From sequence record OR670491: a DNA stretch of 64,000 nt; one strand, given 5' to 3'. The number at the start of each line of letters is the position of its first letter. Within the stretch, counting starts at the first letter, position 1. Both the position numbers and the translations under genes were made by a program. This document shows positions 6,101 to 54,696 of the stretch, in pieces. The notes under the pieces were generated by a model. The model saw nothing but the letters and a program-made list of their open reading frames with translations. It had not been told where the DNA came from and made no database searches. The stretch comes from Escherichia phage vB_EcoM_JNE01.

Positions 6101-9100
6101 CTGCACTTGTGCGTAGACTTGTTAGAATTGATGGACCTTCAACAGATAGCTCAGTTGCATTAACTGCATTAATAGTTGCAGTAGTAGATTTAAGTACTGG
6201 AAGTACGTTAGCATTAACTAAGTCAGTACTTTGAATAATACCAGCAGAAGATAGTGATTTAACACTAACATCAGCAGCACTAAGATCAACAGTGCCAGCT
6301 ACTACTAAGTTACCACCAATGTTTGCACCTTCGGTTGTTGTAATAGATTTAGCACTAACATCAGTAGTGGTTAGGTCAATAGAACCTGGAGTTACGGAAC
6401 CAGTCACTACTAGATTACCAGTTACGGTAGTGTCGTTTTTAATTTCAACACCAGCAGCATTTGCAATTGATGGAGTAGTTAGTGAACCAACGGTAGCATT
6501 ACCAGTTACATCAAGAGTAGTACCCACAGATACTGCACCAGTAGCATCGAGTGAAGCTACATTAGATGCACCACTAACATTTAGTGCGGTTACATTTGCA
6601 GTTCCAACAGTTGCTGTGGTACTATTAAGTACTGGAAGTACGTTTGCATCAGTTGCGTTAGTAGAAGTTACAATACCTGGAGTAGTTAAAGATTTAACAC
6701 TAACGTCTGCTGCACTAAGATCAACTGTACCAGCTACTACTAAGTTGCCACCGATAGATGCACCAGCAGTTGTAGATATGGATTGAGCACTAACATCAGT
6801 CGTTGATAGATCAATTGCACCTGGGGTAAGTGTACCAGTGACAGTTACATTATCAGTAAAAGTAGTGTTACCGTTAATAGTTGGTGAAGTTAGAGTTCCA
6901 GTTGATAATGAACCAGTAGTTGCTGCACCAGTTAAATTCATAGAAGAACCAGCGATAGCTACACCTTCGATATTACCAGTTACTTTCAAAGAAGAACCAG
7001 AAATAGCTGCTGCACTAACGTTACCAGTTGCAGTGATTGCACCAGCACTTACATCGGCTAGGGTACTTGCACCAGCAACACTTAGGGTTGTGGTTACATC
7101 AACTTTATTAGGAGCAATATCAAGACCATCAACGTTAGCATCTGCTACAACACCAGTTGTAGTTCCAGTTACTACTAGGTCTTTAACTGTTACTGTTTGA
7201 CCAGTTACTGTCACATTCCCGCTAAATGCACCCGCTGCACCACTTACATCACCACTGAATGTACCGTTCACACCACTTACATTACCAGTAAATGTACCAT
7301 CAACACCGCTCACATTACCACTGAACTCACCACCAACGCCTTTTACGTTACCAGTACTGGTAATTGCTCCAGAGTTTAGTGCTCCAGTCACGTTAGCAGT
7401 TCCACCAACGAGTAAGTTAGCATTAATAGTTGCACCACCAGTTGATTCTAATGATGAAGATTTAATTTCACCAGCCGCAATAACGGAATTAGGTGTTAAA
7501 TCCTGACCACTCACATCAACTGTTAGACCAGTTACGACACCAGTGAAGTCTACATCATTAAGAATGGTTTTACCATTAACTTTTAGACGAGGTGTTGCTG
7601 GGCTTTGTGTTGAGTTACCTAGAATTTCTACATAATCTAATTTGTTTAGACCTTTACCTGTAATACCATAGGTCGCAAGAGACTCATCACCAAAAGTTGC
7701 AGTTTTTTGTACAGTAAGAGTTACCGGAGCCATAGATTCAGACTGGATTTCGTTCTGTAGTAGAACTGTTGGACGTTGACCTGCTGCGGAATAACCAAAA
7801 CCTAGTTTAACGTCAGCATTTGCAACGTTTTGACCAAGGGTAATGGCTTTAACAGTTGCAGTTGTGTTGTTACCAGTGATGTTTGCACCTAATGTAACTG
7901 CTCCGTTAAGACCAGTAGCACCACTTACGTTCAAACTGGTAGCCTGGATATCATCTAAATCAAATGTACCACCTAATGTTCCAGAAACATTGATGTTATT
8001 GAAGTTTGCAGTACCAGTACTTTCAATATTAGGTAATGTTGCAGTTCCAGTTACTTCTAAATCAGTGACCTTAGTTAGTCCTTTGGTTACTTCGAGTAAA
8101 GGAGTACTAGGATCTTGTGTTAAGTTACCACTAATAGTTACATAATCTAATTTGTTTAGACCTTTACTTGCGATACTATAGGTGGAAAGAGATTCATCAC
8201 CAAACGTCGCACTTTTTAGTACGTTTAGGTTAGTTGGTGACATTAATTCGGTTTGAATTTCGTTTTGTAGAACTACAGTTGGGCGAAGCCCTGCCGCTGA
8301 ATATGTAAAACTCAAGCGATCAGTACTACTTGCTGCGTTAGCACCCAATTTAATGTCTTTGAATGTCGCAGTTGTATTGATACCAGTGATGTTTGCACCT
8401 AATGTAACTGCTCCGTTAAGACCAGAAGCACCACTTACGTTCAATGAAGTTGCATTAATGTCATCAAGACTGAATGTACCACCAAGAACACCATTTATGT
8501 TAATATCATTGAAGTTAGCTGTACCAGTACTTTCAATATTAGGAATAGTAGCAGAACCAGTTACTTCGAAATCAGTTACTTTAGTTAAACCTTTAGTAAC
8601 TTCAAGTAAAGGAGTAGTTGGTGATTGAACTGTGTTACCACTAATAGATACATAATCTAATTTGTTTAGACCTTTACCTGTGATACCGTAAGTATCGAGA
8701 GACTCATCACCAAATGTTGCAGTTTTGAGTACGTTTAGGTTTGTTGGTGACATTAATTCAGATTGAATTTCGTTCTGTAGAACAACTGTAGGTCGTTGAC
8801 CTGATGCTGAATAGGTAAAACTCAAGCGATAAGTACTGCTTGCTGAGTTTGCACCCAATTTAATGTCTTTGAATGTCGCAGTACTATTGATACCAGTAAC
8901 GTTAGCACCAAATGTAACAGCACCTTGTAAACCAGAAGCACCACTTACGTTCAATGTAGTTGCATTAATGTCATCAAGGCTGAATGTACCGCCTAGTGTA
9001 CCACTAATATTAACATCTTTGAAGTTTGCTGTACCAGTGCCAGTGATAGTTTCACTAGAAATTGCAGTGATTGTTGCTTCATTTGCAGTTAATTTATCAA

Positions 9101-9536
9101 AAGCAGCAGTTGTGCCTACACCAGCAGTGATGTTACCATCAAATTGTGTAGTTCCGGTGACTTCTAATTGGTCAACTGTTGTGTTTTTAAGAACAGCAGA
9201 ACCAGCAGTTTGATTAATATCGTTGGCAAATGACGCAGTGCCGTTAAAAGATGCATTGGAGTTAACAGTTGCAGTATCAGAACCGACAACAGCATCACCA
9301 ATTACAGAATTACCTTTAATATCTACGCCACCATTAAGAGATGCTTTACCAGCTACGTCTAGGGTAGAAGTGATATTAGCAGTTGCTGCTTCAATTGCAG
9401 TAAATGTTGCATTTGCGAAAGAAACTGTACCATTTACGGTTACATTTTTCTCAAATACAGCATTACCTTTAACCAAAAGATCTTTATTTACCGTAGCACC
9501 ACCAGTAACATCTAGATCCGTCTTTATAGAGTACAT
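3174..9536 (-). CDS. giant tail fiber protein A (2120 aa), paralog of the fiber at 9675..14561
   Basis: Single ORF; N-terminus MYSIKTDLDVTGG... and C-terminus ...TLDQNTTLAPIAGLIG...FIAQR shared with neighbouring gene; Thr/Gly/Val/Ser-rich repetitive beta-type sequence; three tandem ~170-aa repeats; GGAGGG RBS. Confidence 0.8.
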   Translation of the reverse strand: MYSIKTDLDVTGGATVNKDLLVKGNAVFEKNVTVNGTVSFANATFTAIEAATANITSTLDVAGKASLNGGVDIKGNSVIGDAVVGSDTATVNSNASFNGTASFANDINQTAGSAVLKNTTVDQLEVTGTTQFDGNITAGVGTTAAFDKLTANEATITAISSETITGTGTANFKDVNISGTLGGTFSLDDINATTLNVSGASGLQGAVTFGANVTGINSTATFKDIKLGANSASSTYRLSFTYSASGQRPTVVLQNEIQSELMSPTNLNVLKTATFGDESLDTYGITGKGLNKLDYVSISGNTVQSPTTPLLEVTKGLTKVTDFEVTGSATIPNIESTGTANFNDININGVLGGTFSLDDINATSLNVSGASGLNGAVTLGANITGINTTATFKDIKLGANAASSTDRLSFTYSAAGLRPTVVLQNEIQTELMSPTNLNVLKSATFGDESLSTYSIASKGLNKLDYVTISGNLTQDPSTPLLEVTKGLTKVTDLEVTGTATLPNIESTGTANFNNINVSGTLGGTFDLDDIQATSLNVSGATGLNGAVTLGANITGNNTTATVKAITLGQNVANADVKLGFGYSAAGQRPTVLLQNEIQSESMAPVTLTVQKTATFGDESLATYGITGKGLNKLDYVEILGNSTQSPATPRLKVNGKTILNDVDFTGVVTGLTVDVSGQDLTPNSVIAAGEIKSSSLESTGGATINANLLVGGTANVTGALNSGAITSTGNVKGVGGEFSGNVSGVDGTFTGNVSGVNGTFSGDVSGAAGAFSGNVTVTGQTVTVKDLVVTGTTTGVVADANVDGLDIAPNKVDVTTTLSVAGASTLADVSAGAITATGNVSAAAISGSSLKVTGNIEGVAIAGSSMNLTGAATTGSLSTGTLTSPTINGNTTFTDNVTVTGTLTPGAIDLSTTDVSAQSISTTAGASIGGNLVVAGTVDLSAADVSVKSLTTPGIVTSTNATDANVLPVLNSTTATVGTANVTALNVSGASNVASLDATGAVSVGTTLDVTGNATVGSLTTPSIANAAGVEIKNDTTVTGNLVVTGSVTPGSIDLTTTDVSAKSITTTEGANIGGNLVVAGTVDLSAADVSVKSLSSAGIIQSTDLVNANVLPVLKSTTATINAVNATELSVEGPSILTSLRTSADAVIGTSLTVSGQATAVSLVTPTISNETGVEIASNTKVTGDLTVTGTVTPGAIDLATTDVSAKSITTTGGANIGGDLVVAGTFDLSASDVTANTLASVGNTTVGADLVLTTGNVTGSPAVSGNLSVAGTSTLTGAATVGNKLTVNTGGIQVVAGGVRVDTGSITAQGANISGTATLENASVTSNAAVGGTLGVTGAATLNGGLTSSALTVTGDSVVQKLTVKGEFIPEGGLDLSGADITANSLDVATTLKATGLSTLSGGVSTTDISGSGKITTVDAQTGTLTVTGNQTVGGTLGVTGKATTGSLDTGAVSATSGTFSSTLGVTGAATFADAVTVNGVFTPVGGLDLSTSDITANSLDVATTIKSTAGATIGGDSTIAGTLGVTGAVSAPSLTLSNASGTGLDVKGNAIVAGTLSTTGAVTLGNTLGVTGKATTGSLDTGAVSATSIVGTAGLTMAGNSSFTNDLTVSGTFTPAGGLDLTTSDIVAKSLSTSAAIHSDTNGTFGGTLGVTSNATVGGTLGVTGAVSAPSLALSSASGDALTVAADAKVTGKVTSGSLETGTVKTGANLVVGVKVGEQPETVQIFPDTFIAGKLRVEGGINADIDVSGQTLEPYAIEASATLSAVGNISTDAAVIANSGTFGAVGSQNNNLTVNGNVVTTGNFTVGGVLYANVDQSNADVNVKSLTSTNLVKGGSMQSTGNLTVGGAATITGTLGSGAITSTGKVKGVDGEFSGNVSGVGGTFTGAVTVGTTLGVTGAATVGGTLGVTGKATLAEASVTNLTTSGTATIGSTLAVTGTSTLAAVNISGALTTTGSVTLGDAAADVITVNGTSTFIEKATFEKGIEVAGVFTTDEANFVTTSVTTKKYDVIPSQVTSSTVAPAGTWTPDGSTSVYFITLDQNTTLAPIAGLIGGGKAASIFMYAKQDATGNRVLTADPSYSIVDGEQNLAANSVTIYQAVYDGVSNVIDLFIAQRTS
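7470..9040. repeat. three tandem ~510-bp coding repeats inside fiber A
   Basis: Motif CATAATCTAATTTGTTTAGACC recurs at about 7631, 8141 and 8651 (period 510); encoded protein repeats TGTANFxDxNxSGxLGGTFxLDDI... x3. Confidence 0.8.
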
Positions 9537-9575
9537 ATAGTTCCCTCCATTTTGGGTTATTAAAATACCATGTTT

Positions 9576-9592
9576 ATGTTTATATATTTAGT
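9576..9592 (-). promoter_or_regulatory. putative late promoter of fiber A (CTAAATATATAAAC)
   Basis: Minus strand reads AACTAAATATATAAACA 40-50 nt upstream of ATG; same block found upstream of fiber B. Confidence 0.4.
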
Positions 9593-9629
9593 TGAATTAA
9601 TTGTTTTGGAACTCTCAAAGATAATTATT

Positions 9630-9663
9630 TAGGGAAAAGAAAAAGCCAACACGAGGTTGGCTT
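9630..9663 (-). terminator. intrinsic terminator after fiber B
   Basis: AGCCAAC-loop-GTTGGCT hairpin; minus strand then TTTTTCTTTT. Confidence 0.6.
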
Positions 9664-9674
9664 TCTTTTATTTG

Positions 9675-12600
9675 TTATACACGTTGAGCAATGAAGGTAT
9701 CAAATACAGTACTGAAACCATCATAAACAACTTGAATGATACTAACTTGGTTCACAACTGAACTTACCTGACCAGATACAACTGCGTATTCAGCAGGGAT
9801 AGTTAGAACAGCATCACTAACAGTTGGTGTTACGTAAATGTATACAGAACACGCTTCACCGCTACCGATTAGACCAGTAATTGGTGCTAGGGTAGTGTTT
9901 TGGTCAAGAGTTAGACGATATACGTTACTAGAACCATCTGGAGTCCATGTACCGGATACAGAAGCGGTAGAAGCTACTACTGAAGTTGGTAGAACAGAGT
10001 ATTTCTTAGTGATTACAGTACTGGTTGTGAAATCAGCATCAGTAGTGTTCAATGCACCAGTCACCGTTAGGGCTTTATCAATCACAACGTTCTCTTTGAA
10101 GGTTGCAGTGCCATTAACAGTGATAGTATCAGCGGCAGCATCACCTAGAACAACATTACCATTAGCGGTTAATGTACCAGTAAAGGTTGCAGAACCAGTT
10201 ACGGCTACACTTGCTAGTGTTGCTAAACCTGTTGTAGTTATGGATGCAGTTGAAATTTCACTTTGAACGCTTAAGTTTTCAGAGAATGTTGCTGCACCTG
10301 TAACGGCTACACCACCATTCAGACTCGCTAGTCCAGTTACTGCAAGGGTAGAGCCGGTTTCTAAACTTCCACCAGTAATTTTACCAGTTGCAGTAATTGT
10401 TGTACCAGCAGAAATTGAAGTCCCCGCATTCACATTGTTGGTTGCAGTTAAAGATTTAACAGCTACATCAGAATCCGCTTGGTTCAATTGTGCGTTTAGT
10501 ACTCCTGTTACTGTGAAGTCACCGTTGGTTACAACGTTACCATTTACGGTTAGGTTGTTGTTTAGTGAACCAGAATCACCAATTGTTGCTGCTTTAGCAA
10601 TCATGGTTGCACCAGAAGTGATGTTACCAACTGCACTAACAGTTGAATCAGCCGCAATTGCGAATGGTTCTAATGTTTGACCGCTTACATCGATATCGGC
10701 GTTAATACCACCATCAACACGTAGTTTACCAGCAATATATGTATCAGGAACAATATGAACTGTTTCTGGTTGAACTGCTAGAGGTGTGCCAACTGTAAAT
10801 GATGTACCAGTTTTCACTGCACCACTTGCGGTTAGATCTGCAACGGTTGTTGCTCCAGTCACACCTAGTGTACCACCAACTGTAGTATTACCAGTAGAAG
10901 ATAAAACTCCTGCCCCGACAGTTCCAGATGCAGTTAATGATGTTGCATTGATGTCTGCTGTTGATATTCCACCACTCAATGTACTCAAACCAGTAACACT
11001 TAAAGTAGTTGATGAAGACAAGCTATTTGCAGAAACATCAGCACCAGTTAGATCCAAACCACCTTGTGGAATCAATGTACCTTCAACTGTTACGTTACCT
11101 TTTGCCACGGTTGCACCAGTTACTTCCAAAGACGCAGCAGTTGCTTTACCAGAGGTAGATAGAGTTGAAACACTTGTTGCACCAGCTTGTACTACACCAA
11201 GAGTTGAGGTTCCAGTAACACCAAGAGTGGTTGTTACGGATGCACTTGATAGGGTACTTGCCCCAGCAGTTAGCCCAGCAAGAGATGTTGTACCAGTTAC
11301 GCCTAGTGTACCACCAACGGTAGTATTACCAGAGATTACAGGAGCACCAGTAATTACCCCAGTTGTTAGTACTAAATCAGCACCAACAGTTGTGTTTCCA
11401 GTACTTGCTAGTGTTGCAGCTTGTAGGTTTGTACCACTTAGGTCAAATGTACCATCAACTGTTAAATTACCTGCAACGTGTGCATTACCAAGAGAGTTAA
11501 GTGACTTAACAGAAACATCAGTAGTGCTTAGATCAATTGCACCAGCAGTTAAAGTACCAGATGCATGGAAATCACCAGTAACATTTGTGGATTTTGAAAT
11601 TTCAACTGTTGCACCAGGAGCCGTGAAGGATGCACCACTAATTGCACCAGTTGCCGCTACAGAACTAGCATCAATTGCAGTTGCAGATACAGCAGCAAGG
11701 GTAGAAGCACCAACAACATCAAGTGAGCCAGAAGCAGAAATATTACTTGTATTAATATTAGCTACAGTACTTTCCCCAGATACATTCAATGTTGTTGCTT
11801 TTGCTGCACCTAATGTACTATCGGTTGAAGATAGTTTAGGGAATGTATTGGTTTTTAATGCATCAGTACTAACAAAACTTAATGCAGATACATCTGCACC
11901 ACTTAAATCAACAGTACCTGCAACAGATAGGTTTCCACCGATAGTAGCACCTTCAGTTGTGGTTATTGAGTTAGAAGTTATGTCAACTGAGCTTAGGTCA
12001 AGACCACCTTGCGGGGTAAAGACACCTGTTACGGTTAGGTCTTTAGCTGCTACTACATTACTAGCAAGATTCAATGTTCCCGCACCAGACGCTCCAGCTT
12101 GAACCGTAGGAGTTGTTACAGAAGTTGAAATTGTAGCAGTTGTAGAAGATAAACGTGAACCAGAAACAACACCAGTACTGGTCAATGTTCCAACTTTTGC
12201 AGCACCAGTAGTTGTGATAGTACCACCAGATACATCACCGGAAGCTACTACAGAAGATGCGTTAACAACACCAAAGGTACTTGGGTTAGTTGCAGTAATA
12301 GATTTTGCAGTTACATCAGCAGAACTAAGATCGATAGCACCAGATACAGCAAGAGAACCACCTACGGTTACGTTTCCAGTAGTAGTTAAAGATGCAGCAC
12401 TTACATCAGTAGTACTTAAATCAATCCCACTTGGAGTTAGTGTTCCAGTGATCGTAACATCATTAGCAAATGTAGTATTCCCACTGATAGTTGGAGCAGT
12501 TAGTGAACCAACAGTCGCAGCACCAGTTACTTCTAAAGAACCAGCAGTTGCTTTACCGGACACACCTAGTGAATTACCTAAAGTAACAGCACCAGTTACA

Positions 12601-14561
12601 CCTAATGTACCACCAACTGTAGCATTACTCACTACATGAAGACCAGTACCAGATGCACCATTTAGTGTTAGATACCCTGCCGATGCTGCACCAGATATAG
12701 TTGCTGAACTTGCATTAACAGCAGCCAATGTGGTTTCACCAGCAACACTTAGTGTTGTTGTTACATCAACTTTATTAGGAGCAATATCAAGGCCATCTAC
12801 GTCGGCTACGGCGGTTACACCAGTTGTGGTTCCAGTTACTACTAGATCCTTAACAGTTACTGTTTGGCCTTGTACGGTTACATTACCATCTAAAATACTA
12901 TCTCCAGTTACACCTAATGTTCCACCAAGAGACGTTCCACCTGTGACTTCTAGATAGCCAGCAGTGGTTTTGCCAGTAGAAGTTAATGTTGTTCCCTGAA
13001 TACCAGACGTTGCAGTTACGGAGTTAGGAGTTAGATCCTGCCCACTAACATCAACAGTTAGGCCAGTAACAGTTCCTGTGAATTCTACATCACCTAGAAC
13101 CGATTTACCAGCAACAGAAAGTTGTGGAGTTCCTGGAGCTTGAGTAGCGTTACCAGCGATTTCTAGATAATCTAGTTTGTTTAGACCTTTACCTGTGATA
13201 CCATATGTTGCTAGTGAAGCATCACCAAAGGTTGCAGTTTTCTGAACAGTTAATGTAGCAGGAGACATTAATTCAGATTGAATTTCGTTCTGTAGAAGAA
13301 CAGTTGGGCGTTGACCAACGGCAGTATAAGCAAAACCAACTTTGGTATCAGCACTTGCAGATGCTGGACCTAGGTTTAGTGCTTTAATATTTGCAGTAGT
13401 GTTAGTACCACTGATATTACCACCTAGAGTTACAGAACCTTCAAGACTAGTTAGGCCAGATACTTTTAGTGTTTGTGCTTCGATATCACCTAAACTGAAT
13501 GTACCACCAAGAACACCACTTACGTTAATGTTATTGAAGTTTGCAGTGCCAGTACTTTCAATATTAGGAATAGTAGCAGAACCAGTTACTTCGAAATCAG
13601 TTACTTTAGTTAAACCTTTAGTAACTTCAAGTAAAGGGGTAGCTGGTGATTGAACTGCGTTACCACTAATAGTTACATAATCTAATTTGTTTAGACCATT
13701 ACCAGTGATACCAAAAGTACTTAAAGATGCATCACCAAAAGTAGCAGACTTAAGAACAGTTAGGGATGCTGGAGACATTAGCTCGGACTGAATTTCGTTT
13801 TGTAGAATTACAGTTGGGCGTTGGCCTGGTGCGGTATAAGTGAAGCTTAAACGGTAAGCACTGCTTGCGGAGTTAGCACCGATTTTGACATCTTTAAATG
13901 TTGCAGTTGTGTTGATACCAGTGATGTTCGCACCTAGAGTAACAGCACCCTGTAGGCTACTTTGACCAGACACAGTTAGGGTAGTTGCGTTTACATCAGA
14001 AAGACTGAATGCACCACCTAGTGTACCACTTATGGTAACATCGTTAAAGCTGGCTGTACCAGTACTATTAATGTCGGTTGCATTTAAAGTTGCAATAGTT
14101 GCTTCGTTTGCAGATAGTTTATCAAATGCAGCAGTAGTTCCTGCGTCAGCATTAATATTACCTTTAAAAGTTGAAATTCCATCAACTGATAGTGAGTCAA
14201 CAGATGTTGCTTTCAAATCAACATTACCAGCAGTTTGACGAATATTACCACCAAATGAAACACCAGAGTTAAAAGTTGCTGCGGAGTTAATTGTAGCAGT
14301 ATCAGTACCTGGTGCTACTGCACCAATCACAGTGCTACCTACCACTTCAACACCACCATTAAGAGATGCTTTACCAGCTACATCTAGGGTAGAAGTGATA
14401 TTAGCAGTTGCTGCTTCAATTGCAGTGAATGTAGCATTTGCAAAAGAAACTGTACCATTTACGGTAAGATTCTTATTGAATACTGCATCACCTTTAACTA
14501 ATAGATCTTTACCGACTACAGCACCACCAGTAATATCTAGATCAGTTTTAATCGAGTACAT
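9675..14561 (-). CDS. giant tail fiber protein B (1628 aa), paralog of fiber A
   Basis: N-terminal ~80 aa and C-terminal ~60 aa nearly identical in pattern to fiber A; two tandem ~170-aa repeats; GGAGGG RBS. Confidence 0.8.
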   Translation of the reverse strand: MYSIKTDLDITGGAVVGKDLLVKGDAVFNKNLTVNGTVSFANATFTAIEAATANITSTLDVAGKASLNGGVEVVGSTVIGAVAPGTDTATINSAATFNSGVSFGGNIRQTAGNVDLKATSVDSLSVDGISTFKGNINADAGTTAAFDKLSANEATIATLNATDINSTGTASFNDVTISGTLGGAFSLSDVNATTLTVSGQSSLQGAVTLGANITGINTTATFKDVKIGANSASSAYRLSFTYTAPGQRPTVILQNEIQSELMSPASLTVLKSATFGDASLSTFGITGNGLNKLDYVTISGNAVQSPATPLLEVTKGLTKVTDFEVTGSATIPNIESTGTANFNNINVSGVLGGTFSLGDIEAQTLKVSGLTSLEGSVTLGGNISGTNTTANIKALNLGPASASADTKVGFAYTAVGQRPTVLLQNEIQSELMSPATLTVQKTATFGDASLATYGITGKGLNKLDYLEIAGNATQAPGTPQLSVAGKSVLGDVEFTGTVTGLTVDVSGQDLTPNSVTATSGIQGTTLTSTGKTTAGYLEVTGGTSLGGTLGVTGDSILDGNVTVQGQTVTVKDLVVTGTTTGVTAVADVDGLDIAPNKVDVTTTLSVAGETTLAAVNASSATISGAASAGYLTLNGASGTGLHVVSNATVGGTLGVTGAVTLGNSLGVSGKATAGSLEVTGAATVGSLTAPTISGNTTFANDVTITGTLTPSGIDLSTTDVSAASLTTTGNVTVGGSLAVSGAIDLSSADVTAKSITATNPSTFGVVNASSVVASGDVSGGTITTTGAAKVGTLTSTGVVSGSRLSSTTATISTSVTTPTVQAGASGAGTLNLASNVVAAKDLTVTGVFTPQGGLDLSSVDITSNSITTTEGATIGGNLSVAGTVDLSGADVSALSFVSTDALKTNTFPKLSSTDSTLGAAKATTLNVSGESTVANINTSNISASGSLDVVGASTLAAVSATAIDASSVAATGAISGASFTAPGATVEISKSTNVTGDFHASGTLTAGAIDLSTTDVSVKSLNSLGNAHVAGNLTVDGTFDLSGTNLQAATLASTGNTTVGADLVLTTGVITGAPVISGNTTVGGTLGVTGTTSLAGLTAGASTLSSASVTTTLGVTGTSTLGVVQAGATSVSTLSTSGKATAASLEVTGATVAKGNVTVEGTLIPQGGLDLTGADVSANSLSSSTTLSVTGLSTLSGGISTADINATSLTASGTVGAGVLSSTGNTTVGGTLGVTGATTVADLTASGAVKTGTSFTVGTPLAVQPETVHIVPDTYIAGKLRVDGGINADIDVSGQTLEPFAIAADSTVSAVGNITSGATMIAKAATIGDSGSLNNNLTVNGNVVTNGDFTVTGVLNAQLNQADSDVAVKSLTATNNVNAGTSISAGTTITATGKITGGSLETGSTLAVTGLASLNGGVAVTGAATFSENLSVQSEISTASITTTGLATLASVAVTGSATFTGTLTANGNVVLGDAAADTITVNGTATFKENVVIDKALTVTGALNTTDADFTTSTVITKKYSVLPTSVVASTASVSGTWTPDGSSNVYRLTLDQNTTLAPITGLIGSGEACSVYIYVTPTVSDAVLTIPAEYAVVSGQVSSVVNQVSIIQVVYDGFSTVFDTFIAQRV
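13060..14066. repeat. two tandem ~505-bp coding repeats inside fiber B, homologous to the fiber A repeats
   Basis: TCTAATTTGTTTAGACC recurs about 505 bp apart (near 13170 and 13680); stretches such as GGAATAGTAGCAGAACCAGTTACTTCGAAATCAGTTACTTTAGTTAAACC are shared with fiber A around 8530-8600. Confidence 0.75.
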
Positions 14562-14612
14562 TTAGTTCCCTCCATTTGAATGATTATAAACATAACCATT
14601 CTCGTTAATATG

Positions 14613-14623
14613 TATATATTTAG
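14613..14623 (-). promoter_or_regulatory. putative late promoter of fiber B (CTAAATATATA)
   Basis: Minus strand AAACTAAATATATACAT about 55 nt upstream of ATG; leader ends in the same AAATGGAGGGAACT RBS block as fiber A. Confidence 0.4.
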
Positions 14624-14633
14624 TTTATGATAT

Positions 14634-14665
14634 AAAAAAACCAGACCTGATACTAAAGGTCTGGT
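14634..14665 (-). terminator. intrinsic terminator after the 298-aa fiber/spike gene
   Basis: CCAGACC-loop-GGTCTGG hairpin followed on minus strand by TTTTTTT. Confidence 0.65.
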
Positions 14666-14673
14666 TATATTTT

Positions 14674-15570
14674 TTATTTACCGGATATTACAACCTTGCC
14701 ACTAAATGCAACATAGGATGTGAATATAACATTACCACTAGCATCAATTTGAGTTTCAGCAGTAACAGCTTCAAAAGGTGCAAGAGCAGTACTGCCTTGT
14801 ACTTTATTACCGTATAGAGAAACGTATAGATTGTCAGGGGTTTGTTTATGATCTGCTGCTGGAATAGTTAGAGTGAATTGATCACCGGAAGCTACCCAAT
14901 CAGCCTGATTAATAAGTTTACTGTATGGTACTGTCATAGTTGTTGCTCCTATAATATTAATTTTAACACTTGCGTATTCTGAAAGCTGACCAACTACTTC
15001 TAGAGTTATATCACCAATACCAGAAACTGTAACGTTAGTTTGGAATACAGAATCCAAATCGACATCACCTGGGTCACCTTGCAATTGAACCATAATATCA
15101 GCACCGCGACCATGAATAGATTCAGGAAGAGTGTATGTATATTTGTCAGATGAACCTGGCTCTAATACAAATGCTGAAACTGGAACAGTATGTGTGGTTA
15201 CATAAGAACTATCACTACCAGGAGTAGATGATTTAAGTGGTTTCCATACACCAAGGTCTTTAATATAAATCTGAAGTGTATTTTCAGCATCAACTAGGAA
15301 ATACACATCACCATCGGTTCCCAATGCATCAGCAGGAGCTACAGTACCGCGAAGAATACCACCAGCACCACCGCCACCATGTGCGTTTAAATATCCCAAG
15401 GTTACCAGATGGGTATTAGCTGTTGGGTCAGCCGCAGAAATTGGAAGAAGACCAGTTCCTGTATAGTTTTGAATTTGCACAACACTACCATTCGTAGTGA
15501 TTTGTGCACCATTTTTACCAAGTATGAAGGTCTTCTTCATGGTTCCTTCTAAATTAGAAAAAACTGCCAT
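14674..15570 (-). CDS. tail fiber/spike protein with conserved N-terminal anchor domain (298 aa)
   Basis: Start moved to the ATG preceded by AAAGGAGATGA RBS (MAVFSNLEGTMKKTFILGKNGAQI...); N-terminal ~110 aa parallel the N-terminus of the adjacent tailspike (VFSNLEGTM..FILGK.GA.I). Confidence 0.7.
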   Translation of the reverse strand: MAVFSNLEGTMKKTFILGKNGAQITTNGSVVQIQNYTGTGLLPISAADPTANTHLVTLGYLNAHGGGGAGGILRGTVAPADALGTDGDVYFLVDAENTLQIYIKDLGVWKPLKSSTPGSDSSYVTTHTVPVSAFVLEPGSSDKYTYTLPESIHGRGADIMVQLQGDPGDVDLDSVFQTNVTVSGIGDITLEVVGQLSEYASVKINIIGATTMTVPYSKLINQADWVASGDQFTLTIPAADHKQTPDNLYVSLYGNKVQGSTALAPFEAVTAETQIDASGNVIFTSYVAFSGKVVISGK

Positions 15571-15584
15571 TTTAATCATCTCCT

Positions 15585-17727
15585 TTATGATAGAGTTATA
15601 TATGTTATTGGCTGTGCCGCTTTTAATAATGCACCTGCTGCTGTAGCAGTTACAATTGGGTCGGCAATGTCAACGCGGTATGCGTTTGATACTACGTAAA
15701 CTGCTCTGGTGATGTATGTTAATAAATCTTCACCATTTGCCCCAGCACCTGTAATGAGTATTTGTGTTCCAGCAGCTTTCGCATATTGGTTATCACCCCA
15801 TGATACGCCTAACGCCTCTATATATGTTTGTCCTACAACCGTTTGTCGTATGGTGTCGTATTTTCCGAAGAAAGAACCACCAACTGTTACAATATATTTA
15901 CTCCCTGACTGGTTGTGAATAATTGTACCTTGTGGGAAATAACGACCACCAGGGAACGTGTCATATGGAACATAATATTGTTCAACTACAGGTATCAGTA
16001 CTGGACCACGGTGACCAGTTCCGTCAATATCAGTTGGTACTTTAAAGTTGTTAGATGATTGGTCAATTCTATCCACATACATTTTAGCAAAACTATATTT
16101 GGATATGTTACAATCATCTTGGACTACACAGTTTGTCCAGTTTGTATATGTATATTTAGAACGGGTATACAAACCACCACCTTCACCTTCTGTTGACAAG
16201 TGTTGACCAATAACATCTAACTCTTTAGTGCGAATATCACTAAACTTAGAAGCTGATGGAAGACCACGCCATTGAATCTTAGTACAAGTTACATTGGATA
16301 ATTCAGTATTGTTTGTCCAGTTATCAGAACAAGATGTATAAACTAAAATAGTTGATTCTGGAATATACAAATTAGATAATTTAAAGTTACGTGGAGGTCC
16401 AGCAAATTTACCAGAAGTTACACCCCAGTTTATAGAAACCATACGTGTAGTTACTGATGCGTCATTTAATAGATGTCCAGTAAGACCATCGACAATAAAG
16501 TCTTTTGAACCATAAGTGATAACACCACAGGTAGTAAGGCCAGTACCAGTCGATACCAATGAGGATGGATATACCTCGTTATCTAAAATTTTAAAATCTT
16601 TACCAACTTCAACGTGAATACACTGACGAACGTTATAAACTCTATTGTTTTTAATAACAAAGTTTTTAACATATTGTGAATCAGGAGCATCAACGTCATA
16701 TGGACCAGAACCCGCTACCCCAATTCCTATACCCCAGTTTGATAATGGGATTGGTGCATTAGTACCGTCAACGTTTTCAATAATATTTCCTTCAATTACA
16801 AAACCATCAGGATAATGAGAGTTGATAACGTTTAGTTCGATTGCATCCCCATAGATATCGTGAATATGGTTATAAGAATAACGCCCTACTGTCATTTTTT
16901 CACCCGTGCCTTGTTGAAGAACTCCATACTTACAAAGAGTCATTTCATTAAAGCAGAAATCAATAGTGCCAGTTTGAGTCATACCTTGCATTAAAAACGC
17001 AGCAGTACTGGTAATGTTTATAAATTTATTAAAATAAAATTTACCATCACCACCAAAGAATTTAAGATAACAACCAGTTAATGTAGCAAATTGTATATGG
17101 CAGTTGATTACAGAAATCATAGTACCGCCGTTACCTGTTATTGTTCCACCAAACCAAGTTATATCTTCCAAGTATAAGGCTGTTTTAATTCTATAATTAC
17201 CTTTACCTTGAACTTGAATTTTATTCTCTTTTGCATATACTGCACAGGCATTTACTGCCGCAGTGTCATCTGTTTCACCATCACCTGCTGCCCCAAACTC
17301 TTCAGGAGTTACATAGAACTGTGCTTGTTGAAGTGTTCCTCCTGTTATCAATCCAATATAATCTCCGTCCGTTAACACTTGACAAAATATCTTTATTAAC
17401 GTATAGTGATTTTACCCATTTACCATCAATTTTTAGAAATATATCAACAATCCCTTCACTGTTAGTTTGGAAATATGTATAATTATTTTTACCGATATCA
17501 TCTGAAGGGATGGCTTCACCAAACATTACGGTTGGGTGATCTTCTAGATACTTAACATTGACAGCAGAATCGGCATCAACCGCAGACCCTACTTTAACTG
17601 GTAGAAATTTTTCACCAAATGAATCCTTTATTGAAATGGAATCATCTGAAAAACTAATCAAGGCTCCTTTTTTACCAAGGATGAATGAGGGCTGCATGGT
17701 TCCTTCTAAATTAGAAAAAACTGACAT
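15585..17727 (-). CDS. tailspike with pectate-lyase-type beta-helix (depolymerase-like); N-terminal anchor domain and enzymatic domain in different frames (apparent +1 frameshift near 17380-17410)
   Basis: ORF 17302..17727 encodes the anchor domain (MSVFSNLEGTMQPSFILGKKGALI...); ORF 15585..17378 (+1 frame, starts only at GTG without RBS, in-frame stop 11 codons upstream) encodes ...EEFGAAGDGETDDTAAVNA..., the classic right-handed beta-helix pectate lyase/tailspike signature. Confidence 0.6.
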
Positions 17728-17741
17728 AATCAATACCCCCG

Positions 17742-18869
17742 TTAGATGTTATCGCTAATTGGTTGTATTGGTGATTGCCATGCCAAAGTACAGATAATTT
17801 TAATTTGACCATAAGCACTGTTGTTTACAGAGTCGTTGAAAATACAAGAGATAATTTCATCTTTATCAGAAACAGTGTGGTTAACTTCGTTAACAATAAA
17901 ACGCATTTTACGGTTAATGTCAAAATAATCAACTGGAGCAATTACAGTACCCCCAATATCTTCTTGTGCTTCACCACCGAAACGAACAAACATTTCGTTA
18001 ACTGGTAAATCATAAGCTTGTTGTACATCAACATCGATATTAGTAACTAGGTATCCAGCAGGACATGTACCAATAACTAGAACGGCGTTAGTCCATGAAT
18101 GATCAATAGTGTTTACAATAACCAAGGAATCTTTACCTGGAGCACCTGTAGCACCTGGTAGACCTTGTTCACCTTGAATACCCTGTTTACCACGGAATTC
18201 AATACCAGTACTCCACTCTTTGGAAGGCGGGGTTGTGGTGTTTACAATATCAACATAGTATAGTTTACCATCTGTGGTATTATAGAAGCAGTAGTCTTCA
18301 GGAAGGTCAGTAATACTAGGGAATACATCACCAGTACTATCAATATGGAATCGTCCACGTAGACCTTGTGGGCCACGGAATTGTACACCATCACTCCAAG
18401 TTGCAGTTACTGATTGATAGAAATAAACTTTACCATCAGTTGTATTATAGAATGTATAGTTGTTTACGAGGTTAGTAGTTGGGAATGTATCACCAGAGCT
18501 ATCAATATGGAATGATTTACCAGCTTCACCAGTATCACCTTTACCAAATTCTACAACGTTCCAAGTACTATTACTGTCAGTTGCGGCGTTGGTTTTGAAA
18601 TATAGCTTACTAGTTCCGTTTGCAAGACTAAGATAGCACCAGCCAAGTTCTTCACCTACTCGGAATGATTCATCTGGGATTTCAAAACCTATCTCGTTTG
18701 GATAAAAGTTTTTACCATTTGTACCATCTCTACCAACAACAAGACCTAGATCTTGAATTGTGTTGTCAGCGTAAGTTACGATCAAATGTCCAGCAGAGTT
18801 GATAACTAAACTCTTTATGCCGGAATTATTGCATGAACTACTAGTCCCATTATTAAATGAAATTGTCAT
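17742..18869 (-). CDS. collagen-like repeat-containing fiber protein (375 aa)
   Basis: Start placed at MTISFNNG (AAAGGAAATAATA RBS) rather than the upstream ORF-track start; contains G-x-y triplet runs GPQGLRG and GKQGIQGEQGLPGATGAPGKD. Confidence 0.6.
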   Translation of the reverse strand: MTISFNNGTSSSCNNSGIKSLVINSAGHLIVTYADNTIQDLGLVVGRDGTNGKNFYPNEIGFEIPDESFRVGEELGWCYLSLANGTSKLYFKTNAATDSNSTWNVVEFGKGDTGEAGKSFHIDSSGDTFPTTNLVNNYTFYNTTDGKVYFYQSVTATWSDGVQFRGPQGLRGRFHIDSTGDVFPSITDLPEDYCFYNTTDGKLYYVDIVNTTTPPSKEWSTGIEFRGKQGIQGEQGLPGATGAPGKDSLVIVNTIDHSWTNAVLVIGTCPAGYLVTNIDVDVQQAYDLPVNEMFVRFGGEAQEDIGGTVIAPVDYFDINRKMRFIVNEVNHTVSDKDEIISCIFNDSVNNSAYGQIKIICTLAWQSPIQPISDNI

Positions 18870-24597: not shown

Positions 24598-24628
24598 TGT
24601 TGACAACAGCAAATAATGTGATATAATG
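24598..24628 (+). promoter_or_regulatory. sigma70-type early promoter for clpA-like gene
   Basis: TTGACA - 16 nt - TATAAT with TGn extended -10 (TGATATAAT), about 40 nt upstream of ATG 24668 which has AGGAGA RBS. Confidence 0.65.
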
Positions 24629-48227: not shown

Positions 48228-48247
48228 GTGGAACAAAGTTGATTTTG

Positions 48248-48258
48248 GTGCTATAATA
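48248..48258 (+). promoter_or_regulatory. extended -10 promoter (TGcTATAAT) for gp55 gene
   Basis: GGTGCTATAATAAC about 55 nt upstream of the RBS-supported ATG 48313; divergent from the late promoter. Confidence 0.5.
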
Positions 48259-52332: not shown

Positions 52333-52360
52333 CAAAAGGGAGCCTTAGCTCCCTTTTTTC
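52333..52360. terminator. bidirectional intrinsic terminator
   Basis: GGGAGC-ctta-GCTCCC hairpin then TTTTTT; stop codon of the minus-strand gene lies in the loop. Confidence 0.7.
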
Positions 52361-52836
52361 ACATGCAACATATTTAATTTACCTTCCTTGATAAGCTTCC
52401 TAGCTTGCTTTACACGAGCAGCATTGTTAGCACCAGGGATGATATCGTACTCTTCCAGAATAGCGTTCTGTTGGGCTGCTGGGAGCCTTTTAAACTTACC
52501 TACATCAACTGCTAAAGCAGTGTGGTGTATAATCTGTTCCTCTTCAGGGATGCTATTATTTTTCTCTAAATAGTCTGCAAGATTACGCAGTACTTCGTAT
52601 AGGGGTTTATCAGTTAAGTGCTTCATATAGCGATTAAAGCTGTTCTGAACCTTTCCTTCCCATGCGTTCACTTCATTCTGGAGTACTTCACGACAGTGTT
52701 GATTCTCGAAGTGATAGTGATCCAGTACTGGTTTAGTGATAGTTTCTTTGATGATAGGATCTATACCTTTTTGTTTTTTAAGTAATTCATTTCGATAGTT
52801 TGCAGCGTCTTTACTATCTTTCAATCTTCGTTTCAT
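52345..52836 (-). CDS. putative endonuclease VII-like (gp49-like) protein, 163 aa
   Basis: VLDHYHFENQH...VLQNEVNAWEG...FNR aligns with the T4 Endo VII catalytic core HLDHDH...LCNLCNAAEG...FNR, but the four Zn-ligand cysteines are absent; AAGAGGGG RBS. Confidence 0.4.
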   Translation of the reverse strand: MKRRLKDSKDAANYRNELLKKQKGIDPIIKETITKPVLDHYHFENQHCREVLQNEVNAWEGKVQNSFNRYMKHLTDKPLYEVLRNLADYLEKNNSIPEEEQIIHHTALAVDVGKFKRLPAAQQNAILEEYDIIPGANNAARVKQARKLIKEGKLNMLHVKKGS

Positions 52837-52865
52837 AAATCCCCTCTTAACTAATTCCTATTGAA

Positions 52866-52874
52866 ATATTTATG
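52866..52874 (-). promoter_or_regulatory. putative late promoter (CATAAATA) for the Endo VII-like gene
   Basis: Minus strand AACGCATAAATATTTC about 31 nt upstream of ATG. Confidence 0.45.
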
Positions 52875-52947
52875 CGTTAGTTTTCAGTGCAGGAACTAAG
52901 TACTTTTTCATAAAAAAATCACATAATACTGAGACACTTTTAAAAAA

Positions 52948-52959
52948 TGTGCTATAATG
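52948..52959 (+). promoter_or_regulatory. extended -10 promoter (TGcTATAAT) reading into the ORF-free island
   Basis: AATGTGCTATAATGTT; no protein-coding gene follows for ~450 nt. Confidence 0.45.
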
Positions 52960-52964
52960 TTTAT

Positions 52965-53412
52965 TGTAGTAATGACAATCCTGTTGAATGCAGAAATGCA
53001 TATAAATTAGAACCTGATCCTATCGAAAACGTAGATGGCAGATGAGCAGTTCAACAGTGCGATGAGCAAAAGAAACCCGTCAGATGTGGGCATAGTTTGA
53101 ACCCCTCACGGCAATGCGGCTCAATAAAGAACTCCGATAAGATACAGAGAGTTCCTCGATAGACATATAAGGTAAATTCCTTACCAGATTATCTAAGGGA
53201 GTTTTTGATTTATTTCAAAAACAGCTTGAAGTTTGATTGTATAGACTTTCAAGTGAGTGTCAGGATGTTTAAGACTGACGACCGTTGCATATGACTGCGA
53301 TAGAGAGAAACAGAGCAACCCGCTTTCGTTCTTAATTAATTAAGAAATTCGCAATACAATAATTCCGATGCCATCAGCGTCAAGATTAAGAGACTTCATT
53401 GTCTCTTTTTTA
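52965..53412 (+). ncRNA. candidate non-coding RNA transcription unit (~450 nt)
   Basis: Bounded by the TGnTATAAT promoter and a hairpin plus T-tract terminator; no ORF of 60 aa or more on the plus strand; only a short RBS-less peptide; GC-richer structured-looking stretches (e.g. CCCGTCAGATGTGGGCATAGTTTGAACCCCTCACGG). Confidence 0.3.
53386..53412 (+). terminator. intrinsic terminator ending the candidate ncRNA
   Basis: AAGAGAC-ttcatt-GTCTCTT then TTTTTATT. Confidence 0.55.
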
Positions 53413-53611
53413 TTATCTTCATTCCCCTGCGGGGGGATGAAATATCCTCAACAAATCCCGTCAAGTATTAAATCATTTAAAGTTCTTTATAATTATATTA
53501 AAATGAATATGAGTTACGTCAGTAACGAATATTCTTCAGCTAACGAATGAAATGAGTTAGATGAGTTCAATATAATCCTTCTAGTATAATTCAAATCATC
53601 ATAATTTAGAT

Positions 53612-53646
53612 ACAAAAAAAACCAGCAATAGATGCTGGCTTAGTAG
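53612..53646 (-). terminator. intrinsic terminator after the 70-aa gene
   Basis: On minus strand CCAGCA-tctatt-GCTGG followed by TTTTTTTT. Confidence 0.6.
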
Positions 53647-53650
53647 TGAG

Positions 53651-53863
53651 TTACTGCTTCCCGTTGAGTTTTTTAATTTTCTTATTAAATGACTTAACTA
53701 ATAAATTCCTGTCAATTACTGGCATATTAAGGAGTGTTCCGTAGTCAATATTTTCCATATTCACAGCACACTCCATAAGTGCTTCTTTGATCTCTTTTTT
53801 ATTCAGTTCTATTTCCTTCAAAAATTCTTGAATTTCTTCTGGAGTTGACTGGAGAAGCGTCAT
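53651..53863 (-). CDS. hypothetical protein (70 aa)
   Basis: Small ORF translationally coupled (ATGA overlap) to the upstream 278-aa gene; Lys/Glu-rich helical. Confidence 0.45.
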   Translation of the reverse strand: MTLLQSTPEEIQEFLKEIELNKKEIKEALMECAVNMENIDYGTLLNMPVIDRNLLVKSFNKKIKKLNGKQ

Positions 53864-54696
53864 GCGAAAAAATGACTAGGGTCATACTTGAGTCCTTCAA
53901 TTTCCCATTGATGAGAACACTCACTGCATTCAACTTCCATAGTATGAGAAATACCTACTTCAAGTACTTCATCCATTTTTTCTTTGATTACTTTAATAAC
54001 TGCTTTGGATTGTTGTCCTAACCATTCTACAATGAATTCCTTTTCAGTTACTTCATCCCCGTCAGGAGTAATAATTTTGTTAATGACTCCAGCGATCATA
54101 TCGAAGTTCAACTGTGCCATCTTTTCAAAGATCTCACCAAATAGTTTAATTTTCTCTTCTTCTTCAATACCAGCACCTTCTAAGTACTTACTTTTCTGCT
54201 GTTCTGCGAACATACGTTCAGCAAAGTCAGAGTATTCCTTCCAAGTCAAAGGACGAAACTCCAAAGTAAGTCCGTTATCTAGGTTGACAGTCGGTACTTC
54301 TTCGAATACACTAGCAGTCTCAAGTAGGAAACTTAAGTCACGTTCAAAACGTCCTTCTTTGTGACATTCAGGACATTCAACGTTGACATCATAAGTAGTT
54401 TCTTTAGATGCTACTTTAATTGCGATAAGAAGTTGCTCAATGTCGTTGACATACAATCCATCTGCATCTATAATGTTTGGTACGCAGTTCTCGATAACAC
54501 GGGATACAGATTCACCACTCAAAAGCATGTCAGGGGTGTTAAGTGTCATCTCATCACGAGCACTACGAGCACAAATGCCACATTTTACGCTTTTACTACC
54601 GAGAACACCTTCACTGTAAGGGATCACGGCATTACTGATTAGTTTAGTACTAAGTTCTTCAATTTTAGTGTATTTTGCTAATGGGTTCATAGCCAT
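53860..54696 (-). CDS. hypothetical zinc-ribbon protein (278 aa)
   Basis: Three CxxC pairs (CGIC, CPEC, CSEC); TGGAGAAACTA RBS; late promoter-like motif upstream. Confidence 0.5.
   Translation of the reverse strand: MAMNPLAKYTKIEELSTKLISNAVIPYSEGVLGSKSVKCGICARSARDEMTLNTPDMLLSGESVSRVIENCVPNIIDADGLYVNDIEQLLIAIKVASKETTYDVNVECPECHKEGRFERDLSFLLETASVFEEVPTVNLDNGLTLEFRPLTWKEYSDFAERMFAEQQKSKYLEGAGIEEEEKIKLFGEIFEKMAQLNFDMIAGVINKIITPDGDEVTEKEFIVEWLGQQSKAVIKVIKEKMDEVLEVGISHTMEVECSECSHQWEIEGLKYDPSHFFA

Follow-up and report, generated by a model that had tools for sequence, protein, structure and literature searches.

Which product, if any, is made from an interval of some 0.8 kb that holds no long open reading frame (ORF)? 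The question is raised by an ORF-free island at positions 52837-53650 of a 64,000-nt stretch of DNA from Escherichia phage vB_EcoM_JNE01 (record OR670491), which was analysed as a whole and is referred to here as the window. An initial annotation, made from the letters alone, had proposed a structured non-coding RNA (ncRNA) with its own promoter and terminator. Comparison with related phages bears this out: the unit is conserved, more than 12 helices carry compensatory changes across 35-37 sequences, and no coding signature was found. The island is almost certainly the gene for a large ncRNA, with a predicted length of approximately 450 nt to the terminator, or approximately 500 nt if a hairpin and motif on the 3′ side are read through. 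The comparison also indicates that it is the fold, and not a peptide, that is under selection. The window matches Escherichia phage Turkey5 (PQ471516) at 99.3-99.8% identity; Turkey5 is an Asteriusvirus-like jumbo myovirus with a genome of 351 kb and belongs to the 121Q/PBECO4 group.

Promoter, terminator and 3′ module

An extended −10 promoter had been noted near position 52950. The sequence TGCTATAAT is present at 52950-52958 on the plus strand, and a consensus scan places a −35-like TGAGACA at 52930-52936, separated from it by a 13-nt spacer (promoter 52930-52958). Every copy of the element in every phage is preceded by TGGGACA, TGGAACA, TGAGACA or TGAAACG, approximately 13 nt and TGnTATAAT. 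A conserved sigma-70-type promoter with a TGGRACA-type box thus lies upstream of all copies, as expected of a stand-alone bacterial-type ncRNA gene.

This promoter motif occurs at 16 sites in the Turkey5 genome, all on the plus strand, where approximately 0.6 would be expected by chance. The other twelve sites precede replication and recombination genes, including the gp55-like/gp47/gp46 cluster and the genes for DNA polymerase and the sliding clamp, and sites of the class also precede genes for a 5′-3′ exonuclease, SSB, primase and topoisomerase. A promoter of the same class (TGGAACAAAGTTGATTTTGGTGCTATAAT) was seen in the window at 48229-48257 (plus strand), upstream of the gp55-like/gp47/gp46 cluster. 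In phage CBB, a ‘divergent RpoD-like’ promoter, consisting of TGAAACG plus a −10 box, is concentrated upstream of DNA-synthesis genes (PMC5259590), and it is the same as the promoter class of the ncRNA. Because the promoter is shared, the RNA would be co-regulated with the replication genes. Elsewhere in the window, a near-consensus sigma-70 promoter, TTGACA-N15-TGTGATATAAT, lies at 24598-24627 (plus strand); it has the −10 region and the bases that follow (ATGTTTATT) in common with the ncRNA promoter.

The putative RNA body extends from a start approximately 7 nt after the −10 box to the U-tract of the terminator (52965-53413, plus strand; approximately 449 nt). The intrinsic terminator that the initial annotation had placed here was recovered in a terminator scan, as a stem AAGAGAC/GUCUCUU at 53388-53407 followed by TTTTTTATTAT (53388-53413, plus strand). 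The stem is 83% paired among the members, with compensatory changes at six of its seven pairs; the scan gave four terminator-like sites against 0.9 expected. A 3′ intrinsic terminator is likewise a property of stand-alone bacterial-type ncRNA genes; most copies have one, but it is absent from the paralogues designated A and D, and conserved sequence continues beyond it.

This conserved sequence is a 3′ module, universal in the copies and made up of a CCCC/GGGG hairpin and CCTCAACAAATCCCGTCAA. Its only occurrences in the Turkey5 genome are at the four loci of the element; the motif alone has one additional chance match. The strong hairpin already noticed after the terminator, CCCCTGCGGGGGG at 53425-53437, lies within a 10-bp stem at 53418-53441 on the plus strand (H16, UUCAUUCCCC-UGC-GGGGGGAUGAA). 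H16 is 94% paired with compensatory changes at one of eight pairs, holds a U·G wobble allowed only on the plus strand, and is retained as a hairpin of other sequence in copy D. The second part of the module, CCUCAACAAAUCCCGUCAA at 53446-53464 (plus strand), is nearly invariant in all copies, with the consensus CCUCAACAAAUCYCGUCAR, and is followed by an AT-rich stretch with short repeats. A boxA/nut reading of this motif was rejected, as AACAA alone is in common.

In the window, the AT-rich stretch (53475-53600, plus strand; 23-31% GC) contains two copies of AACGAAT, TATAAT-like boxes, a promoter-like site at 53547-53576 and three ATGAGTT direct repeats, at 53509, 53552 and 53561, of the type that the initial annotation described. 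In other genera, a conserved module GAATTGAGTT ... ACGAACGAAGTGAGTAC ... AACGAAAATTCTTTGACATTCGAAGAATGGCAAAT was observed approximately 120-200 nt after the 3′ motif, with covarying C-GAA-G mini-hairpins (CATTC-GAA-GAATG, CATAC-GAA-GTATG) that overlap a TTGACA box. The equivalent positions in the window, 53500-53580, have diverged to the ATGAGTT and AACGAAT repeats plus TATAAT boxes.

Predicted fold of the RNA body

The structure was curated by hand on the window copy, core position i corresponding to window position 52958+i. Column statistics for the helices were calculated over 35 non-identical members; the first pseudoknot was followed in 34 members one sequence at a time, and the 3′ half was scored with a structure-pair counter on a 34-sequence alignment that includes phage RaK2 and a copy from an E. 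coli island. Across copies the RNA body is 430-520 nt long, and invariant blocks alternate with variable hairpins. At least 14 helices and three H-type pseudoknots (PK1-PK3) are predicted, and more than 12 helices, the pseudoknots included, are kept by compensatory changes. All are on the plus strand.

In the 5′ part, CUGUUGA at 52981-52987 is predicted to pair with UCAACAG at 53051-53057, in the loop of H2, to form PK1 (52981-53057). Complementarity of 5-8 bp was found in 34 of 34 sequences, in 12 sequence variants. H2, which closes the PK1 loop, is a 3-bp stem GCA/UGC (53046-53060) that is 100% paired with compensatory changes at two of three pairs, and shifted-register controls gave 10-34%. 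H1 is a 5′ hairpin with a GAAA tetraloop (AUGCA-GAAA-UGCAU, 52988-53001), present in all copies with differing sequences. The long hairpin H3 (53014-53041), CUG-AU-CCUAUC GAAAACGUA GAUGG-CAG, carries an invariant 9-nt loop, GAAAAYGUA, on a stem that varies between CUAUC/GAUGG, CACUC/GAGGG, CUCUU/AAGGA and CUAGUC/GACAG, with CUG/CAG changing to CUA/UAG. Two further helices are 100% paired: the long-range H4, between UGAGC at 53063-53067 and GCUCA at 53119-53123 (35 sequences; three of five pairs compensatory), and H5, between CCGU at 53077-53080 and ACGG at 53108-53111 (three of four), which encloses a variable hairpin found in two versions.

The central part is predicted to contain H7 (GAACUC/GAGUUC, 53129-53154; 94% paired, six of six pairs compensatory) and H8 (UAAGG/CCUUA, 53168-53183; 90%, two of five), the latter flanked by the invariant motifs GAUAGACAUAU and CUAAGGGAG. 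H9 (CUUGAAG/ACUUUCAAG, 53225-53253) has a conserved loop, UUGAUUGUAUAG, and compensatory types at all six pairs; its pairing percentages are low only where the MAFFT alignment shifts its register. Within this loop, AUUGUAU at 53236-53242 is predicted to form PK2 with AUACAAU at 53354-53360. PK2 is 97-98% paired with compensatory changes at four to six of seven pairs, and its variants AUUGUAU/AUACAAU, UUCAUAU/AUAUGAA, GUCGAAU/AUUCGAC, AUUGCAU/AUGCAAU and CUUGAAU/AUUCAAG were all observed. H10 (GUCAG/CUGAC, 53259-53279) is 95% paired, and all five pairs are compensatory.

Towards the 3′ end, GUUGC at 53284-53288 and GCAAC at 53315-53319 would form H11, which is 100% paired in 34-35 sequences with three of five pairs compensatory, and reads GUCAU/AUGAC in copy D. 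PK3, between GAGAG at 53303-53307 and CUUUC at 53323-53327, crosses H11; it is 100% paired and invariant in most members, and in RaK2 it reads AGGGG/CCUCU, a set of three double changes. The hairpin H13 (UCUUAA/UUAAGA, 53330-53345; 89% paired, five of five pairs compensatory) is lengthened by an extra hairpin in some paralogues. The last hairpin before the terminator stem, H14 (GAUGC-CAUCA-GCGUC, 53367-53381), has the variants GAUGC/GCGUC and GACGA/UCGUC, both of which pair, and its low column statistics are due to a 1-nt alignment offset. More generally, the statistics of H1, H3b, H9 and H14 are lowered because MAFFT misaligns stems of variable length. Invariant single-stranded motifs join these helices: besides GAAAAYGUA and CUAAGGGAG they are AGAAACCCGU, CACGGCAAUGCGGC, GAUAGACAUAUAAGG, GACCGUUGC, GAUAGAGAGAAAC and ACCCGCUUUCG.

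Register-shifted controls were mostly 10-60% paired, with values up to 75% for H16. Over the 3′ half, the proposed structure was 82% paired compared with 36-54% in slid registers, and the covariation score was 0.286 against 0.131±0.008 after shuffling; none of 500 column shuffles reached the observed value. The covariance analysis on related phages that the initial annotation had proposed as a check is positive, and an absence of conserved structure, which it named as a result that would refute the RNA, is contradicted by the helices kept across related phages. G·U pairs outnumber A·C mismatches in the helices by 116 to 25, which indicates that the plus strand is the folding strand. The interior is richer in GC than its flanks, as had been remarked (0.39-0.45 compared with 0.23-0.29). 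Folding of the single sequence, also suggested at the outset, gave a modest result: the minimum free energy was −106 kcal/mol (z=−2.1), as expected when pseudoknots are ignored. An RNAalifold consensus on the MAFFT alignment proposed a closing helix between the 5′ and 3′ ends and missed the pseudoknots, and was replaced by the hand curation and column statistics. A hammerhead reading of CAGAUGAG...CGAA was also discarded: the GAAA part lacks conservation, and PK1 accounts for the supposed stem II.

Several database records annotate small proteins here, and ORFs of 28-60 amino acids (aa) do occur on both strands. The initial annotation was slightly wrong in stating that there is no plus-strand ORF of 60 aa or more, since one of exactly 60 aa lies at 53368-53550; it spans the terminator and hairpin and is not conserved among members. 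Records of Turkey5, 7t3, Yen9-04 and other phages carry ‘hypothetical protein’ genes in this place, between none and four per record and in some cases two to four, at positions and on strands that are inconsistent between records. The conserved small protein gene that would have spoken against an RNA was not seen by any of three measures. When members are compared with the window copy, most indel runs have lengths that three does not divide (422 and 119 leave a remainder of one and two, respectively, compared with 122 that leave none), variability across members shows no 3-nt periodicity and no conserved frame with a codon-position pattern, and the longest plus-strand ORF ranges from 24 to 70 aa. 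Covarying stems also interrupt the conserved blocks. That the island encodes small proteins is the least probable of all the explanations considered, and so improbable that it can be set aside.

Copies in phages and bacterial islands

The core of the element (approximately window 52995-53472) was matched by blastn in 71 phage records at 69-92% identity. The hosts belong to Escherichia, Salmonella, Klebsiella, Cronobacter, Pectobacterium, Erwinia, Serratia, Yersinia and Xanthomonas, and all RaK2-like jumbo phages are included. Identity of 69-92% between genera is very high for non-coding DNA. There are 4-5 matching places per genome, or two in Alcyoneusvirus. A profile hidden Markov model (nhmmer; E=1e-134 for the RNA body) found exactly four copies in the whole Turkey5 genome, all on the plus strand, at 53999-54503, 108764-109340, 192058-192551 (the window copy) and 304934-305424, each within an ORF-free interval of 660-810 nt. 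Identity among the paralogues is only approximately 66%, yet orthologues of each occupy the corresponding genomic position in other genera, indicating an ancient duplication. A divergent member was seen in RaK2 (JQ513383.1, approximately 279670-280175), where the central domain, from the H4 region to AAAGGGAG, has been swapped for a different sequence; it keeps PK1, PK2, H11 and PK3, and is useful to define a minimal core.

When IMG/VR, metagenomes and the genomes of 185,579 bacterial and archaeal species were scanned with an exact motif, true members appeared only on jumbo-phage-like contigs of 350-370 kb, and all matches outside such contigs were due to chance. No match to the element was found in plasmids. 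The exact motif missed a copy in an E. coli island by one substitution, and bacterial copies may therefore be under-counted. Among 5,426 complete E. coli genomes, two contain an intact copy, in which the phage-type promoter, every helix and the 3′ module are present; its identity is 69% to the window copy and 81% to the copy in Serratia phage BF. It lies within an integrative island of approximately 10 kb adjoining ffs (strain LR-29-1, NZ_AP027515.1, approximately 3473200-3483560; within the locus analysed, the island is at 7958-18302 and the RNA copy at 11905-12545). The island also contains an integrase split by IS3, hypothetical genes, a resolvase, DUF2188 and a defence-candidate module, PDC-M45 (mSLOG-DUF4326, DUF488, DuOB).

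Klebsiella islands at the same ffs site carry a phage-type promoter (TGGGAT...TGTGATATAAT; TGGGATAACCTCAAAAAAATGTGATATAAT), a short transcript, a terminator, a CCC..GGG hairpin and CTCAACAAATCTCGTCAG, without the RNA body (CP171495.1, positions 4300-4470 of the locus analysed, and two further loci). These islands indicate that promoter and 3′ module can work alone and that the RNA body is a separable cargo. Flanks that lack the body would most simply be a phage-responsive transcription cassette. The Klebsiella arrangement resembles a phage-inducible cassette placed upstream of cargo, in this case a 498-aa protein, a 256-aa protein and a SMODS nucleotidyltransferase. Both the promoter with 3′ module and the RNA body are missing from other islands that contain the neighbouring 257-aa gene. 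As most relatives of the 257-aa protein occur without the cassette, the two do not constitute an RNA-protein module, and no jumbo-phage homologues of the neighbouring island proteins were found. Between the cassette and the 257-aa gene, we observed an AT-rich stretch with repeated TATCGATCGTT units (12930-13030 of the LR-29-1 locus and 6810-6915 of the CP171495.1 locus). These iteron-like repeats might serve as an origin of the island itself or as an array of operators.

The surroundings of the window copy were only partly as the initial annotation had them, namely fenced by the terminators of convergent genes. This is correct on the right, where a minus-strand terminator found in the terminator scan (53619-53641) forms the boundary, outside the RNA, and belongs to two convergent minus-strand genes, a 70-aa ORF (53651-53863) and a 278-aa baseplate-hub-like gene (53860-54696). 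It is incorrect on the left, where the endonuclease VII-like gene (52345-52836, minus strand) starts at the island and is divergent, and its terminator is distant (52334-52357). This last is a 10-bp GC-rich hairpin between the convergent ends of a gp46-like gene (plus strand, ending at 52327) and the endonuclease VII-like gene (ending at 52345); it was scored as a minus-strand terminator and is probably common to both genes. The 70-aa ORF, which is only ‘hypothetical’ in database records, and the hub-like gene have 4 nt (ATGA) in common, which suggests that their translation is coupled. The four paralogues, the RaK2-like family, the inclusion of the hairpin in the unit and the capture by bacterial islands are all points that go beyond the initial annotation.

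Possible functions and comparison with known systems

What might such an RNA do? The explanation we favour, to which we give a little less than an even chance, is a folded RNA that acts in trans, either within a ribonucleoprotein, as its RNA subunit, or as an RNA that is ribozyme-like or binds a ligand. Host RNA polymerase would make the RNA when the replication genes are expressed, and the RNA would be released at the terminator and then fold into a compact tertiary structure. Multiple copies would provide dosage, and peripheral hairpins would be free to diverge, which may also avoid lethal recombination between long identical repeats. This explanation is preferred because invariant unpaired nucleotides between covarying helices, together with three pseudoknots, are the signature of a precise tertiary structure, because the unit has its own terminator, and because the window copy has no downstream plus-strand gene for which it could be a leader.

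A number of points weigh against an action in trans. Four to five diverged paralogues at dispersed, syntenic sites would sooner be expected of cis-acting elements. Conservation in the unit is highest in the 3′ hairpin and motif, which lie downstream of the terminator, and as paralogues A and D have no terminator, some transcripts must continue. The Klebsiella islands hold promoter and 3′ module without the RNA body. The member sequences on which the fold was drawn are phylogenetically related and were aligned with MAFFT, and we infer the transcription start, the 3′ end and the abundance of the RNA from sequence.

A cis-acting, origin-associated RNA is a possible explanation that we consider unlikely on balance. 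Replication of the 350-kb genome would start at each of the four loci, where a structured transcript fired from the replication-class promoter, or a read-through of its 3′ part, would prime or license DNA synthesis in the AT-rich repeats, for example through an R-loop; T4 oriF and oriG, ColE1 RNA II and the herpesvirus oriLyt RNAs are analogues. The copies are indeed dispersed, at approximately 54, 109, 192 and 305 kb, and syntenic across genera. Their promoter class is common to the polymerase, clamp, SSB, primase and topoisomerase genes, and T4 origins use middle promoters. Downstream of the RNA body lie a conserved hairpin with a G-run, the 3′ motif, a stretch of 23-31% GC, direct repeats and C-GAA-G mini-hairpins, and promoter and 3′ module have been captured by integrative islands, as happens with elements that hijack cis-acting sites of a helper. 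However, between the RNA body and the 3′ module stands an efficient-looking terminator, and a transcript that has terminated forms no R-loop. Primers normally need neither three pseudoknots nor many invariant unpaired nucleotides, known T4 origins are mutually non-homologous, and GC skew over the whole genome follows gene orientation only, without an origin signal. The islands have no recognisable replication or packaging genes, and most of their relatives lack the cassette.

In a more specific form of this explanation, which we regard as doubtful, the four loci would be RNA-specified origins, at each of which a possibly catalytic, triple-pseudoknotted RNA recruits or primes a T4-like replisome at its own locus. 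The islands would then have stolen the cassette to be amplified or switched on by an infecting phage, or as a decoy for a binding factor.

We consider it improbable that the unit is a cis-acting transcriptional switch or leader, in which the RNA and 3′ module would act on RNA polymerase or on the transcript, through processive antitermination, regulated read-through or processing, to control downstream blocks of genes. In bacterial islands such a switch would be induced by phage. Long arrays of plus-strand genes do follow paralogues A, B and D, of which A and D have no terminator, and the E. coli and Klebsiella cassettes lie upstream of cargo genes on the same strand. The 3′ motif also repeats a motif of the body (AACCCGUYAG, AUCAKCGUCAR, AAUCYCGUCAR) and could compete for the ACGG strand of H5. 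Against this, nothing but convergent minus-strand genes follows the window copy, which is syntenic in all genera, the hairpin and motif come after the terminator and not before it, a 450-nt leader with three pseudoknots far exceeds the known put, EAR and nut elements, and the motif is unlike boxA except for AACAA.

It is very improbable that the element is a known RNA class (RNase P RNA, tmRNA, a group I or II intron, GOLLD or ROOL), a mobile repeat or a non-functional AT-rich spacer. Its size and pseudoknots recall RNase P RNA, tmRNA and group I introns, and its several copies per genome recall mobile elements. Yet no match was found among the 4227 covariance models of Rfam 15, at E≤10 in the window and at E≤3 in ten homologous loci; the weak matches reported were terminators or chance and lay outside the element. 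ARAGORN detected no tRNA or tmRNA gene in the whole window, so that both programs agree with the initial annotation, in which no tRNA, tmRNA or known ribozyme had been recognised by eye. RNase P RNA was rejected also on reading, as the CR-I/CR-V motifs of the P4 pseudoknot (GGAAAGUCC ... ACAGAA..GGCUUA) are absent and the resemblance of ACAGAGCAACCCGCUUUCG to an RNase P motif is merely superficial. Group I and group II introns were rejected because, besides the lack of an Rfam match, the element is intergenic with its own conserved promoter, and GOLLD, ROOL, OLE and raiA because none has an Rfam match here. The promoter and intergenic position likewise argue against a mobile repeat, the copies are syntenic across genera, and terminal repeats or target duplications were not seen; a spacer is contradicted by the strong purifying selection on structure. 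The coding, mobile-repeat, spacer and known-family readings are effectively excluded.

Large and pseudoknotted, the RNA represents a class not described before, which is specific to RaK2-like jumbo phages, with occasional capture by enterobacterial islands. We found no description of it in the literature, and no RNA-seq data for RaK2-like enterobacterial phages. These jumbo phages include candidates for phage therapy against E. coli, Klebsiella, Salmonella and Cronobacter, and the RNA offers a testable handle on how replication or gene expression is organised in 350-kb genomes. Its gene also corrects ‘hypothetical protein’ annotations in many database records, and its capture by bacterial islands points to a new interface of phage-host conflict. 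To our knowledge, large RNAs of complex fold are rare, and nearly every class of known function does a fundamental job, as do RNase P, tmRNA, introns and riboswitches.

Among known systems, GOLLD and ROOL are large ‘ornate’ ncRNAs often carried by phages or prophages (PMC12286853). Like them, the jumbo-phage RNA is longer than 400 nt and phage-borne, has an intricate structure with many conserved unpaired nucleotides, and was found by comparative analysis of an ORF-free gap. It differs in having no sequence or structure match to either, in occurring in Enterobacterales jumbo myoviruses and not in Firmicutes or lake metagenomes, and in being present as four to five diverged copies per genome with a replication-class promoter. 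With the R-loop RNAs of T4 oriF and oriG and with ColE1 RNA II it shares the presence of several loci in one genome, a G-rich hairpin and AT-rich region downstream and a promoter that would belong to the replication (middle) class, and RNA II is also approximately 500 nt long with a required fold. Unlike these origin transcripts, the jumbo-phage unit has an internal intrinsic terminator and far stronger conservation of a tertiary type, and its copies are homologous whereas T4 origins are not.

In PA5oct, a related Pseudomonas jumbo phage, RNA-seq has defined four ncRNAs of 236-619 nt, ORF-free and on the plus strand, two of which are very abundant throughout infection (PMC7318152). PA5oct has core genes in common with the 121Q/RaK2 group, and its four ORF-free plus-strand regions parallel those described here. 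Its ncRNA002 (451 nt, MK797984.1 21951-22401) was considered as a homologue and rejected, since this GC-rich RNA gave no nhmmer match to the profile, and the PA5oct record is absent from the blastn matches to the element. The lack of similarity suggests that the wider clade of jumbo phages may carry several unrelated large ncRNAs. RNase P RNA, tmRNA and group I introns differ from the jumbo-phage RNA, which is multi-copy and has no covariance-model match, tRNA-like ends, tag ORF, P4 motifs or splice-site context. It has in common with them a length of 350-500 nt, multiple pseudoknots, and invariant single-stranded segments that join covarying helices.

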